Positions 5,823 through 40,988 are shown, numbered from the stretch's first letter. The stretch: 64,000 bases of DNA from Allosphingosinicella sp. (GCA_045811485.1 JBJMTX010000021.1:18570-82569), one strand, 5' to 3'. Numbers and translations are program-made. Notes: generated by a model not told the origin, from the sequence alone.

Positions 5823-6614
5823 ATGAAGCGGCACTTCCTCAAGATGCACGGCCTGGGCAACGACTTCGTCATCTTCGACGCGCGCGAGGCGCCGCTGGAG
5901 ATGGACGAAGCGAAGGCGCGCGCCCTCGCCGACCGGCGAACGGGCATAGGCTGCGACCAGCTGATCCTGCTCGAGCCCTCGGCCGAGGCCGACGTCAGGA
6001 TGCGGATCTGGAATTCGGACGGCGGCGAGGTCGAATCCTGCGGCAACGCCGCGCGCTGCGTCGCCCTCCTGCTCGGCGGCAGGGCCCGGATCGAGACCGC
6101 GGGCGGTCTTCTCGCGGCGGAAGCGAACGGCGAAGCGGCGACGATCGACATGGGCGAGCCGCGCTTCGGCTGGGACGAGATCCCGCTCGCCTACCCGATG
6201 GACACGGCGGCGATGCCGGTCGGCTGGGAGGCTCTGCGCGAGCCTTTCGCGGTCAATGTCGGCAACCCGCACGTCGTCTTCTTCGTCGAGGATAGCGAAA
6301 AGGTGCCGCTCGACCGGCTCGGGCCGCTGATCGAGAGTGATCCGCTTTTCCCCGAACGGGTCAACGTCAACGTCGCCAGCGTCGAGGCCGGCGCCCTCCG
6401 GCTCCGGGTCTGGGAGCGCGGTGCCGGCCTCACCCGCGCCTGCGGCACCGGAGCGTGCGCGACCGCGGTCGCCGCAGTGCGGCGCAAGCTGGCCGCCAGC
6501 CCCGTCGAGGTCAGGCTTCCCGGCGGCGTGCTGACCATCGCCTGGGCGCCGGGCGGGACGATCCGGATGAGCGGCCCCGCCGCCCACGTCTTCGAGGGCG
6601 AGGTGGCGCTGTGA
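5823..6614 (+). CDS. dapF: Diaminopimelate epimerase
   Basis: KMHGLGNDF, SCGNA, VGNPH, ERG and ACGTGA motifs. Confidence 0.98.
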   Translation: MKRHFLKMHGLGNDFVIFDAREAPLEMDEAKARALADRRTGIGCDQLILLEPSAEADVRMRIWNSDGGEVESCGNAARCVALLLGGRARIETAGGLLAAEANGEAATIDMGEPRFGWDEIPLAYPMDTAAMPVGWEALREPFAVNVGNPHVVFFVEDSEKVPLDRLGPLIESDPLFPERVNVNVASVEAGALRLRVWERGAGLTRACGTGACATAVAAVRRKLAASPVEVRLPGGVLTIAWAPGGTIRMSGPAAHVFEGEVAL

Positions 6615-7975
6615 GCGGGCTCGAGGTCATCACTTTGGGCTGCCGGCTCAACGCCGCCGAGAGCGAGGCGATGCGCGCGCTGGCGGGCGGCGAGGACGAT
6701 CTCGTCATCGTCAACAGTTGCGCCGTCACCAACGAAGCGGTGCGCCAGACCCGCCAGGCGATCCGCAAGGCCAAGCGCGCCCGGCCCGAGGCGCGCGTCG
6801 TGGTGACGGGCTGCGCGGCCCAGATCGAGCCGGAAACTTTCGCGGCGATGCCGGAAGTGGACGGGGTCGTCGGCAATGGGGAGAAGTTCGACCTCTCGTC
6901 GTTCCAGCGCAGGCTGGAACCCCAGGGGGCGAAGACTTCGGAGCCTGTTCTCGCTGGGGCCCCAGCCTTCGCTGGGGCGACGGTTTCCGATATCTTCGCC
7001 GTGCGCGAGACCGCGCCGCACCTCGCCGTCGGCTTCGCCGAGCGCCACCGCGCCTTCGTCGAGGTGCAGAATGGCTGCGACCATCGCTGCACCTTCTGCA
7101 TCATTCCCTACGGGCGCGGGAACAGCCGAAGCGTGCCGGCGGGGCTGGTCGTCGAGCGGATCAAGGCCTTGGCCGGCGAGGGCTTCCGCGAGGTGGTGCT
7201 GACCGGGGTCGACGTGACCAGCTACGGCCCGGACCTCCCCGGCGCGCCGACCTTGGGCATGCTGATCGAGCGAATCCTTCGCCACGTGCCGGAGCTTGAG
7301 CGCCTCCGCCTCTCCTCGCTCGACTGCATCGAGATCGACGAGCGGCTTGAGGACATCGTCGCCCACGAGCCGCGCTTCATGCCGCACCTCCATATGAGCT
7401 TCCAGTCCGGCGACGACATGATCCTCAAGCGGATGAAGCGCCGCCACTGCCGCGCCCAGGCGGTCGCGACGGTCGCCCGGCTCAAGGCGAGGCGGCCGCA
7501 GCTGGCGATCGGCGCGGACCTCATCGCCGGCTTCCCCACCGAGACCGAGGCGATGCACGAGAACAGCGTCCGGCTGGTCGACGAGTGCGATATCGTCATG
7601 GGGCACATCTTCCCCTTCTCGCCGAAGCGGGGCACGCCGGCGGCGCGGATGCCGCTGGTCGAGCCGGCGGTGGTCAAGGAGCGGGCGCGGCGGCTGCGAG
7701 AGGCTTGCGCGCGGCGCAAGGCGGGGTGGCTGCACGGACTGGCGGGGACGACTCAGCGTGTGCTGGTGGAGAAGGACGGTCGCGGTCACGCGGAGAATTT
7801 CGCGCCGGTGGCAATGTTCCGTCACCCCCGCGAAAGCGGGGGTCCCGCTTCTTCGTCTGACACGGCGCCGGAAGAGAAGAAGCGGGATTCCCGCTTTCGC
7901 GGGAATGACGGGGAGATAATCTCCGTCCTCATCACCGCCGTCGAAGCCGGCACCCTCGTCGGGACCCCCGTATGA
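6611..7975 (+). CDS. mtaB: tRNA t6A37 methylthiotransferase MtaB, carrying two in-frame palindromic insertions
   Basis: GTG start at 6611; TLGCRLN, VNSCAVT and QNGCDHRCTFCIIP (radical SAM) motifs; dapF-mtaB-ftsY order. Confidence 0.95.
   Translation: MSGLEVITLGCRLNAAESEAMRALAGGEDDLVIVNSCAVTNEAVRQTRQAIRKAKRARPEARVVVTGCAAQIEPETFAAMPEVDGVVGNGEKFDLSSFQRRLEPQGAKTSEPVLAGAPAFAGATVSDIFAVRETAPHLAVGFAERHRAFVEVQNGCDHRCTFCIIPYGRGNSRSVPAGLVVERIKALAGEGFREVVLTGVDVTSYGPDLPGAPTLGMLIERILRHVPELERLRLSSLDCIEIDERLEDIVAHEPRFMPHLHMSFQSGDDMILKRMKRRHCRAQAVATVARLKARRPQLAIGADLIAGFPTETEAMHENSVRLVDECDIVMGHIFPFSPKRGTPAARMPLVEPAVVKERARRLREACARRKAGWLHGLAGTTQRVLVEKDGRGHAENFAPVAMFRHPRESGGPASSSDTAPEEKKRDSRFRGNDGEIISVLITAVEAGTLVGTPV
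6897..6982. repeat. CGTC-tagged palindromic dimer (family A) inside mtaB
   Basis: CGTC-GTTCCAGCGCAGGCTGGAAC...GGGGCCCCAGCCTTCGCTGGGGC-GACG. Confidence 0.85.
7820..7910. repeat. CGTC-tagged palindromic dimer (family A) inside mtaB
   Basis: CGTC-ACCCCCGCGAAAGCGGGGGTCC...GGATTCCCGCTTTCGCGGGAAT-GACG. Confidence 0.9.
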
Positions 7976-8901
7976 GCGAGGCGACGTGGCTCGACCGGCT
8001 GCAGGCCGGGTTCAGGAAGACTTCGGAACGGCTCGGCGACAATCTCACCGGCCTGTTCACCAAAGCGGCGCTCGACGAGGCGACGCTCGAGGAGATCGAG
8101 GAGGCGCTGATCGCCTCCGACCTCGGCCCGGCCACGGCGGGCAAAATCCGCAACCGTCTCGCCGCCGAGCGATTCGAGCGCGGACTTTCCGAATATGCGG
8201 TTCGCGAGATCGTCGCCGAGGAGCTCGAGAAGGTGCTCGCGCCGGTCGCGGTACCGCTCCAGATCGACGCTTTCCCCCGCCCCCAGGTGATCCTCGTCGT
8301 CGGAGTGAACGGCTCGGGCAAGACGACCACCATCGCCAAGCTCGGCCACCTCCTGCTCGAGCAGGATTACGGAGTCCTGCTCGCCGCCGGCGATACGTTC
8401 CGGGCCGCCGCGATCGAGCAATTGAAGATATGGGCTGACCGGATCGGAGTCCCCGTCATCGCCGGTCCCGAGGGCGGCGACAGCTCGGCGATCGTCTTCG
8501 ACGGGGTCAAGAAGGGCACCGCCGAGGGCATCGACACGCTGATTGTCGACACGGCCGGCCGGCTTCAGAACAAGAAGGTGCTGATGGACGAGCTCGCCAA
8601 GATCCGGCGGGTGCTCGGCCGGCTCAATCCCGAAGCGCCGCACAATGTCGTGCTGGTGCTCGACGCCACCACCGGGCAGAACGCGCTCAGCCAGATCGAG
8701 GTGTTCAAGGAGGTGGCGGGCGTGACCGGGCTGATCATGACCAAGCTGGACGGCACGGCCCGAGGCGGGATCCTCGTCGCGGCGGCGGAGCAGTTCAGGC
8801 TTCCGATCCACGCCATCGGAATCGGCGAGGGCCTCGATGATCTGAGGCCCTTCGACGCGCGGGAAACCTCCCGGGCGATCGCCGGGCTTGGAAGGGAATG
8901 A
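7972..8901 (+). CDS. ftsY: SRP receptor FtsY
   Basis: GVNGSGKTTT, DTFRAAA, DTAGRLQ and TKLDGTARGG motifs. Confidence 0.98.
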   Translation: MSEATWLDRLQAGFRKTSERLGDNLTGLFTKAALDEATLEEIEEALIASDLGPATAGKIRNRLAAERFERGLSEYAVREIVAEELEKVLAPVAVPLQIDAFPRPQVILVVGVNGSGKTTTIAKLGHLLLEQDYGVLLAAGDTFRAAAIEQLKIWADRIGVPVIAGPEGGDSSAIVFDGVKKGTAEGIDTLIVDTAGRLQNKKVLMDELAKIRRVLGRLNPEAPHNVVLVLDATTGQNALSQIEVFKEVAGVTGLIMTKLDGTARGGILVAAAEQFRLPIHAIGIGEGLDDLRPFDARETSRAIAGLGRE

Positions 8902-24243: not shown

Positions 24244-24277
24244 CGTCATCCCGGCGAAAGCCGGGACCCAGGAACAC
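24244..24277 (+). repeat. Single CGTC REP arm left of the GIY-YIG gene
   Basis: CGTCATCCCGGCGAAAGCCGGGACCCAGGAACAC; 33/34 identical to 24645-24678. Confidence 0.92.
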
Positions 24278-24326: not shown

Positions 24327-24698
24327 ATGGGCGGGCACGTCTATATCCTCGCAAGCCGAAAACACGGCACGCTCTACATCGGCGTCACCTCCGACCTTCC
24401 GAAACGCATTTACGAGCATCGCGTGGACGCGGTGCCAGGATTCACCCGCCGCTACGGCGTCAAGCGGCTCGTCTATTTCGAAACGTTCGATGACATCGAA
24501 GCCGCGATCGTGCGCGAGAAGCGAATGAAGGAATGGCAGCGCAGCTGGAAAATCCAGCTGATCGAGCGCGCCAATCCCGACTGGACCGATCTCGCCGTGA
24601 AGCTCCTGGGCTTCGAACCGCTTCCGTCGCCGCCGGTCCTCCACCGTCATCCCGGCGAAAGCCGGGACCCAAGAACACGAAAATACCCGATCCGATGA
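24327..24698 (+). CDS. Small stand-alone GIY-YIG nuclease
   Basis: GHVYILAS...TLYIGVTSDLPKRIYEH; LVYFE; AIVREKRMK; LIERANPDW. Confidence 0.95.
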   Translation: MGGHVYILASRKHGTLYIGVTSDLPKRIYEHRVDAVPGFTRRYGVKRLVYFETFDDIEAAIVREKRMKEWQRSWKIQLIERANPDWTDLAVKLLGFEPLPSPPVLHRHPGESRDPRTRKYPIR

Positions 24699-24759
24699 GG
24701 GCGCTTGCTCGCTACGGAGAAGCCTTCGTTCCTGGGTCCCGGCTTCCGCCGGGATGACG
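24645..24759. repeat. CGTC REP dimer right of the GIY-YIG gene (family A)
   Basis: CGTCATCCCGGCGAAAGCCGGGACCCAAGAACAC...GTTCCTGGGTCCCGGCTTCCGCCGGGATGACG. Confidence 0.93.
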
Positions 24760-32785: not shown

Positions 32786-32873
32786 CGTCATGCCAGCGAA
32801 GGCTGGCATCCCAGGGGGTGAGTTGCGCAGGAGCCTTATCCTCGCTGGGGCCCCAGCCTTCGCTGGGGTGACG
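32786..32873. repeat. CGTC-tagged palindromic dimer (family A)
   Basis: CGTCATGCCAGCGAAGGCTGGCATCCC...GGGGCCCCAGCCTTCGCTGGGGTGACG. Confidence 0.9.
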
Positions 32874-40918: not shown

Positions 40919-40988
40919 CGTCATGCCAGCGCAGGCTGGCATCCCAGTGAGAATTCCCCCTGGGGCCCCAGCCTTCGCTGGGGCGACG
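40919..40988. repeat. CGTC-tagged palindromic dimer (family A)
   Basis: CGTCATGCCAGCGCAGGCTGGCATCCC...GGGGCCCCAGCCTTCGCTGGGGCGACG. Confidence 0.9.

Follow-up and report, generated by a model that had tools for sequence, protein, structure and literature searches.

Two CGTC-tagged palindromic repeat dimers read in frame within mtaB of an Allosphingosinicella genome

The mtaB gene in a 64,000-nucleotide stretch of Allosphingosinicella sp. (GCA_045811485.1 JBJMTX010000021.1:18570-82569; the whole stretch is referred to here as the window) contains two dimers of repetitive extragenic palindromes (REPs). It raises the question of whether such selfish repeats are new arrivals that supply a tRNA-modifying enzyme with protein sequence, as an original prediction from the DNA alone proposed, or passengers of longer standing. 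We consider it probable that these are two dimers of CGTC-1-type REPs (a type also known as NTS or Ssn-related motifs) that sit in frame in two permissive mtaB loops as tolerated selfish DNA and were not acquired privately by this genome.

Anatomy of the two inserts and their host gene

The gene and the parts of its two inserts are as follows, with positions counted from the first letter of the window.

6611–7975, plus strand: mtaB coding sequence, GTG start, TGA stop, 454 amino acids
6897–6982, no strand assigned: insert 1, 86 bp, CGTC-tagged REPs with CCAGC stems arranged as a head-out dimer
6897–6920, plus strand: left REP unit of insert 1, CGTCGTTCCAGCGCAGGCTGGAAC, with an 8-bp stem and a 4-nt loop
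6959–6982, minus strand: right REP unit of insert 1, CGTCGCCCCAGCGAAGGCTGGGGC
7820–7910, no strand assigned: insert 2, 91 bp, CGTC-tagged REPs with CCCGC stems arranged as a head-out dimer
7820–7843, plus strand: left REP unit of insert 2, CGTCACCCCCGCGAAAGCGGGGGT, which fits the published Ssn-related motif
7887–7910, minus strand: right REP unit of insert 2, CGTCATTCCCGCGAAAGCGGGAAT, which also fits that motif

Insert 1 is read as residues 96–124 (SSFQRRLEPQGAKTSEPVLAGAPAFAGAT), which lie in the linker joining the UPF0004 domain to the radical SAM domain, and insert 2 as residues 404–433 (RHPRESGGPASSSDTAPEEKKRDSRFRGND), which lie in the loop that connects two strands of the C-terminal TRAM-like domain. 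Both lie inside the open reading frame without breaking it, and the peptides that had been predicted for them are correct to the letter. Their assignment to a single repeat family, family A, held only in part: both are dimers of CGTC-tagged REPs, but they represent two sub-types, with CCAGC stems and CGTCG heads in insert 1 and CCCGC stems in insert 2. An unpaired CGTC tag begins all four units, as in CGTC-1 repeats, and each unit has an 8-bp stem and a 4-nt loop (stems GTTCCAGC, GCCCCAGC, ACCCCCGC and ATTCCCGC; loops GCAG, GAAG, GAAA and GAAA). The hairpins read CGTCGTTCCAGC-GCAG-GCTGGAAC and, on the opposite strand, CGTCGCCCCAGC-GAAG-GCTGGGGC in insert 1, and CGTCACCCCCGC-GAAA-GCGGGGGT and CGTCATTCCCGC-GAAA-GCGGGAAT in insert 2. 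The right unit of insert 2 is the only one with an A-T, T-A start to its stem; the other three are variants found elsewhere in the genome. Exact copies of the right units occur 19 times (insert 1) and 24 times (insert 2) in the genome, the latter being identical to the core of the Neisseria NTS consensus.

Each dimer as a whole is an inverted repeat, with 29-nt arms that are 83% complementary in insert 1 (6897–6925 and 6954–6982) and 36-nt arms that are 89% complementary in insert 2 (7819–7854 and 7876–7911), where the spacer is itself self-complementary (GCTTCTTC...GAAGAAGC). The predicted RNA folds have energies of −59.7 kcal/mol (z score −5.7) and −75.3 kcal/mol (z score −10.8), respectively, each matched by 0 of 200 shuffled sequences.

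To place these segments among orthologues, we compared mtaB across 80 named genomes of Sphingomonadales and other Alphaproteobacteria, 29 species-level relatives and the 120 closest database proteins. The last search is biased towards proteins that are close in length to the query (the gene described here) and have words in common with it, and the species-level sets are the fairer comparison; E-values and counts from genome searches are limited by how many candidates were scored. Because repeat-free orthologues have short loops at both sites (7–12 residues compared with 27 in the query at site 1, and 8–10 compared with 35 at site 2), the alignments identify both segments as true insertions, of about 19 and 25–27 codons. 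Relative to the closest empty alleles, the query is longer by 57 nt at site 1 and by 75–81 nt at site 2. Segments of equal length were not found in the repeat-free orthologues, and the proposal that REP dimers had inserted in frame is borne out by indels at both sites. Each is an in-frame insert in a conserved gene that appears as a clean indel against orthologues, the description applied to Rickettsia palindromic elements (RPEs).

Within an open frame at 6455–7975 (plus strand), mtaB starts at the GTG at 6611, overlapping the dapF stop codon, and its own stop (7973–7975) overlaps the ftsY ATG, giving an operon of dapF (5823–6614), mtaB (6611–7975) and ftsY (7972–8901) with overlapping stop and start codons. 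The product scores 402.9 bits against TIGR01579 (curated cut-off, 357) and comprises UPF0004 (residues 6–88), radical SAM (residues 150–322) and C-terminal TRAM-like strands. In the homologue alignment C37, C68, C156, C160 and C163 are invariant and C11 is nearly so; the score, the three-domain architecture and the presence of both cysteine triads place the product in the MtaB family. The last 20 residues, downstream of both inserts, are in frame and conserved, as are the C-terminal strands. Judged by this conservation, the enzyme looks intact with both inserts and is probably still active. Predicted peptides that would cross the insert junctions include ...FDLSSFQR, AGAPAFAGATVSDIFAVR and DSRFRGNDGEIISVLITAVEAGTLVGTPV.

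An AlphaFold2 model built from 91 sequences has a mean predicted local distance difference test (pLDDT) score of 82.7 and a predicted template modelling score of 0.80. It matches the B. subtilis MtaB model with a template modelling score of 0.83, MiaB with 0.75–0.76 and RimO with 0.77. Confidence falls below a pLDDT of 50 at residues 110–132 and 410–418, and the means of ten-residue blocks are 56, 43 and 42 over insert 1 and 67, 48 and 52 over insert 2. Insert 1 falls in an already extended linker ahead of the radical SAM core and insert 2 between the strands at 399–402 and 436–445 of the TRAM-like domain; in the model, both are low-confidence loops between confident domains that leave the fold undisturbed. 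The inserted segments are thus predicted to be disordered loops on an otherwise normal MtaB fold; the original prediction had suggested structure prediction as a way to see whether they are surface loops.

Occupancy and turnover across the genus

CGTC-type peptides are present at site 1 in 93 and at site 2 in 100 of the 120 closest homologues (74–86% identity). Among the species-level relatives about 10 of 29 are occupied at each site, and outside the genus most genomes are empty. Within the genus, occupied, empty and collapsed states of the two sites are scattered over the mtaB tree: in the query's seven-species clade site 1 is occupied throughout, G012, G004 and G002 are empty, and the two earliest-listed species of the genus polytomy are empty or have no recognizable REP at both sites. 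The two independent hits of the original prediction, understood as an event private to this genome, do not fit sites that are this widely occupied and polymorphic in the genus; rather, both were probably already occupied in ancestors within the genus.

What occupies the sites varies as much as whether they are occupied. They hold the query's types, other CGTC types and unrelated palindromic families, the last at both loops (VRAEPVEA...LRQAQAER, VPSEVEG...STSLDTNG and PSPL.GEG). Units have been added in L010, P0073 and P0086, and in G009 a second head stands beside the old one (ACGTCATTT ACGTCACCCCAGC). Two genomes, G017 and G018, have collapsed to single hairpins with the frame preserved, and a 34-bp mini-palindrome is nested in a REP loop at site 2 of G005 and site 1 of G020.

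A mini-palindrome of about 34 bp, GGGNNCCCATCAAAGTASTACTTTGATGGGNNCCC, has roughly 9–11 copies in the query genome (for example, at C25:26175, C11:1918, C9:36858 and C49:61821). Most of the copies that were printed lie inside a CGTC REP hairpin loop, as if the element targeted such loops, and in the relatives L095 (site 2) and L102 (site 1) it is nested in the mtaB REP and translated (...PSKYYF...). At mtaB site 1 of L003, a metagenome-assembled genome (MAG) of Allosphingosinicella, the left REP hairpin is broken up by a short element, CTTCGACGCCGCCTGCGGCGGYGCTCAGGATAAACT, whose translation is PFDAACGGAQDKL; the same element is found at site 1 of another Allosphingosinicella MAG, L013.

Orthologues that are occupied conserve the hairpins and not the peptides. 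All of them fold as a long hairpin, most with z scores between −4 and −9. Identity to the query is 65–77% in the arms compared with 80–85% in the rest of the gene, and falls to 26–57% in the spacers, which cannot be aligned. Orthologues differ in the frame in which they read the left arm at site 1 (SFQRRLEP, VTPAKAGV and SPQRKLGS). We found no excess of synonymous-site conservation in the arms, with third-position identities of 0.56–0.71 compared with 0.65–0.73 in the rest of the gene, a test that is confounded by replacement with divergent types. The divergence of the arms, their unexceptional third positions and the varying frame of the site 1 left arm together argue against a function for the peptides, and the earlier statement that the palindromes are creating new protein sequence does not hold in a functional sense: frame and type vary between orthologues, and the segments are predicted to be disordered. 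Because the hairpin persists despite diverged arms and spacers, the comparison shows a palindrome that is apparently renewed and not merely inherited.

Evidence on how the contents of a site change comes from the junctions. At site 2, four dimer types (in G000, G022, G014 and G024) share the junction xTC|CGTC...GACG|GGGAR, and all four alleles lack 4–6 loop codons that are present in every empty allele. The small differences between junctions (6 or 9 nt on the left and 0–9 nt on the right) follow host lineage, not element type. The mtaB copy in G022 has a paralogue of 95% identity within the same genome, and third-codon identity between the mtaB genes of G000 and G022 is 70%. Type 1 has 4, 6 and 1 copies in the genomes with type 2 at site 2 (G022, G009 and G005, respectively), and 58, 17, 26 and 31 copies in the genomes that carry type 1. 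The dimers of the query are older: the best paralogues of each reach 84–86% identity, and orthologous copies, at 81–83% identity, are no closer than non-orthologous copies in other species (up to 86%). We therefore favour the inference that the various types found at a single junction result from replacement in place.

Type 2 is an 82-bp CGTC dimer, CGTCATCCCGGCGAAAGCCGGGACCTCGGG...CCCGAGGCCCCGGCTTTCGCCGGGGTGACG. Its many copies share 88–95% identity, both inside single species and from one species of the genus to another, and first-look candidates number up to about 400 in a genome. The dimer is far more conserved than the synonymous sites of mtaB.

The repeat family, a candidate partner and rival explanations

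The query genome (3.6 Mb, 67.7% G+C) is rich in these repeats. A pattern search recovered about 359 CGTC hairpin units compared with 52 in a reversed-genome control, and the published Ssn-related motif has 216 matches compared with 15 in the control; because these counts are far above the control, the CGTC repeats are not a product of chance. Stems fall into three flavours (CCGGC, 175; CCCGC, 94; CCAGC, 90), and the 106 head-out dimers, mostly of 80–99 bp, constitute a dispersed multi-copy dimer family of the CGTC-1 kind. Two further dimers of the insert 1 sub-family lie in the window and serve for comparison.

32786–32873, no strand assigned: dimer of the insert 1 sub-family
40919–40988, no strand assigned: second dimer of the insert 1 sub-family

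By a rough filter on open reading frames and third-position G+C content, applied to dimers only, 4 of the 106 are in frame within recognizable genes: the two in mtaB, one in glyS and one in mutL. The glyS dimer reads PVAPAKAGA...GAPASAGAT and lies near the position reported for glyS of Erythrobacter litoralis. It is located on contig C21 (93217–93334, minus strand), about 10.6 kb past the end of the window, in a gene of 839 amino acids counted from the first ATG (dimer PVAPAKAGALGGEDFGARTGHRSETAAANPAGAPASAGAT), and a second repeat-like segment from another family, PSPSRGEGQVREANQGEGAGGEGQSLTLPPGSAGRGPPSPLQGEEQ, is found near the C terminus. In mutL (contig C38, 29551–29613, minus strand) a short in-frame CGTC REP dimer, RHSREGGNPASFWTPAFAGVT, occupies the linker between the DNA_mis_repair and C-terminal dimerization domains. 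The genome also carries other repeats, such as the GTTCGGGCTGAGCCTGTCGAAGCCC palindromes.

Two kinds of gene were considered as partners of the repeat family.

24327–24698, plus strand: small putative GIY-YIG nuclease gene, 123 amino acids, PF01541 match of 51.7 bits
C6:43756–44076, C14:32342–32671, C14:40506–40832, C1:16013–16333 and C17:105357–105659: five Y1_Tnp (IS200/RAYT-like) genes

Three CGTC REP units (24244–24266, 24645–24667 and 24737–24759) box in the GIY-YIG gene, an architecture resembling that given for the Ssn system in PMC11893778, where a small single-domain GIY-YIG nuclease gene (cd10448) has the motif on either side. None of the five Y1_Tnp genes, identified by PF01797 matches in the genome, has a CGTC unit within 1.5 kb, and a RAYT was rejected as the mobilizer. 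Because the former gene is boxed by units and the latter are without them, the protein partner of the family is likely to be an Ssn-like GIY-YIG nuclease and not a RAYT.

In the explanation that we prefer, the dimers would have entered places that are permissive, namely the flexible linker that joins the N-terminal part to the radical SAM domain and a hairpin loop of the C-terminal TRAM-like domain. They would be tolerated there in that the units are stop-free in the frames used and the net change in length is divisible by three, and the additional 19 and 25–27 residues would protrude as disordered loops. Since the ancestral occupation, a site may have retained its dimer, had it overwritten by another REP-dimer type, gained further units, shrunk to a single hairpin or been emptied, and the elements may move or renew as single-stranded hairpins with the help of an Ssn-like GIY-YIG nuclease. 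Several points weigh against this account. The within-genus tree is that of a single gene with many weakly supported forks, on which gains and losses cannot be counted reliably, and G020, inside the query's clade, has an ancestral-looking empty site 2 that would fit recombination or independent insertions in sister lineages. Ssn itself has been shown to cut single-stranded DNA (PMC11893778), which is not the same as mobilizing repeats. The published motif, HGTCWYN(0-2)YYVSBRHN(0-5)WNVSBRGN(0-2)RNCYNB in the same source, matches both units of insert 2 and neither unit of insert 1, whose CGTCG heads have a G at position 5. Finally, translation through a −75 kcal/mol hairpin and retained activity are both presumed solely from conservation.

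The strongest competitor, although we regard it as unlikely, is recurrent independent insertion at two hot spots, in which each type entered an empty allele separately and nothing was replaced in place, the elements being either attracted by a target sequence or sifted by selection, given that these would be the only two loops to tolerate inserts. Site 1 is occupied in Sphingobium boeckii and S. naphthae, and site 2 in Sphingomonas echinoides, U848 and T1888, so separate insertions do occur. The unrelated palindromic families that occupy the same two loops in other lineages, the empty alleles inside occupied clades (G020, G012 and G004) and the resemblance of the host sequence at site 1 (C TCG TTC) to a REP head all point the same way. 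However, the four types at site 2 share the loss of 4–6 codons as well as the right junction GACG|GGGAR, and four identical deletions are improbable; the junction differences, moreover, track lineage and not element type. The sequences flanking the 106 dimers reveal no strong target motif and show only a weak preference for C at −1 and G at +1 that extends the palindrome. Replacement in place, by contrast, might be taken a step further, such that the MtaB loops are reusable docking sites at which a resident dimer is overwritten by whichever type is expanding in that genome. We put this forward tentatively and think it rather unlikely. It would entail templated, homing-like renewal of hairpins as an alternative to cut-and-paste into new targets, for example through Ssn-type nicking of an extruded single-stranded hairpin at the CGTC heads followed by repair from a paralogous copy. 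If true, it would mean that a hairpin stays perfect for far longer than neutral decay permits and that the type found in the gene tracks the repertoire of the genome.

Persistence of the hairpins could also reflect exaptation, in which the peptides, or the mRNA or DNA hairpins, have gained a function for MtaB or for the dapF–mtaB–ftsY operon (for example, by contacting protein or RNA, by pausing translation or through the stability of the mRNA). The hairpins are near-perfect in every occupied orthologue despite divergence, both sites are occupied in most of the close relatives in the 120-homologue set, and insert 2 lies in the TRAM-like domain, which is the RNA-binding part of MiaB-type enzymes. 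Yet the gene is otherwise normal in congeners whose sites are empty or collapsed, and the shifting frame of the site 1 left arm, the divergent spacers, the ordinary third positions of the arms and the low model confidence of both segments all tell against it. Because intergenic copies of the same families across the genus maintain their hairpins equally, hairpin maintenance is a property of the repeat and not of mtaB, and we consider exaptation quite improbable. A recent, private double invasion, as the original prediction implied, would be consistent with the long hairpins that both elements still form, but orthologous copies of the same type with similar spacers are present in G011 (site 1) and in G011, G023 and G003 (site 2), and the query's copies are 14–16% diverged from their nearest paralogues in the genome, which makes such an event very improbable. 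We give least credence to an artefact or a pseudogene, that is, to an assembly error at the palindromes or a dead gene with an accidental open frame. Palindromes can confuse assemblers, but independent assemblies of many species carry inserts at the same sites, the 454-codon frame retains all catalytic cysteines and a conserved C terminus past both inserts, and the gene still overlaps dapF at its start and ftsY at its stop.

The locus adds mtaB, together with glyS and mutL from the same genome, to the published genes with translated CGTC-type REPs. For annotators, the words PAFAGAT or PAFAGMT, RHPRESG and DSRFRGND are expected marks of repeat-derived loops and not domain features. At two sites across one genus, mtaB displays the full set of states (empty, several types, extended, nested and collapsed), which makes it a compact natural system for asking how CGTC/Ssn-type hairpins renew and whether Ssn nucleases take part.

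Comparison with known systems

The arrangement resembles REPINs (Bertels and Rainey 2011, PMC3116915) in that two inverted REPs and a spacer form one long hairpin, and in being a long-lived family with vertical inheritance at orthologous positions. It differs in that there is no associated RAYT; the flanked RAYT that characterizes that system was not found, as the five Y1_Tnp genes have no CGTC unit within 1.5 kb. Features are also shared with the NTS/SsnA system of Neisseria (Nat Commun 2025, PMC11893778): the right unit of insert 2 lies within the NTS consensus, CGTCATTCCCGCGMAVGCGGGAATCYRG, the degenerate motif, which has 216 matches in the genome, fits both units of that insert, and the small GIY-YIG gene is boxed by repeats. 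That study, however, concerns cleavage of single-stranded DNA and transformation in Neisseria, and the passages retrieved from it do not describe copies in coding sequences. Moreover, the insert 1 units fall outside the motif, and the local putative nuclease is likened to Ssn by its PF01541 match and flanking units.

The original prediction compared the peptide of insert 2 to those of Rickettsia palindromic elements, and rightly so: RPE-6 is equated with CGTC-1, and R. conorii entries end in LDSRFRGND, as insert 2 does. Those elements (Ogata et al. 2000, 2002; Claverie and Ogata 2003, as cited in PMC3733652) are, in that account, likewise palindromic repeats that lie in frame in housekeeping genes and are translated as extra loops. 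The setting is different. The genome here is that of a free-living sphingomonad with 68% G+C, as opposed to a reduced intracellular one; intragenic dimers number only 4 of 106, and the longer RPE-1 type is not involved. A scan of the insert peptides alone against NCBIfam RPE-domain models returned no match at E ≤ 10, which is uninformative for peptides this short.

The phenomenon itself is already in print: intragenic CGTC-1 dimers are known from sphingomonads, and double hits on one gene are on record. CGTC-tagged REPs were defined by Di Nocera, De Gregorio and Rocco (2013, BMC Genomics 14:522, PMC3733652), who described CGTC-1 as having 8-bp stems, 4-nt loops, A-T pairs at the first stem positions in most members and mostly head-to-head dimers. 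They reported it from Sphingomonas wittichii, Sphingopyxis alaskensis, Erythrobacter litoralis, Rickettsia and Neisseria, equated it with RPE-6 and dRS3, and concluded that CGTC REPs are without a dedicated transposase. Their supplement lists intragenic dimers in E. litoralis truB (RHPREGGDPANLG...LDPRLRGG) and glyS (VVPAKAGTS...IPASAGMT) and in R. conorii (SFLRKQES...LLDSRFRGND), and uvrA and uvrB as genes hit twice. Their supplementary table has no entry for mtaB, MiaB or a radical SAM protein, and a literature search for REPs in genes of the mtaB/MiaB family returned nothing beyond that paper. The mtaB dimers share with CGTC-1 the CGTC head, the 8-bp stem, the 4-nt loop, the head-to-head arrangement and an alphaproteobacterial, sphingomonad host. 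They also share the translated length of 20–30 residues, the words RHPRE.G.P, DSRFRGND, VxPAKAG and PAFAGMT/AT, and a setting among genes for RNA modification and tRNA synthetases, there represented by truB, rsmE, glyS and ileS. What differs is that here two sites, followed across a genus, hold several dimer types at one junction, together with collapsed remnants and added units; this probable genus-wide turnover at fixed junctions is the sole part of our analysis that may add to the literature.

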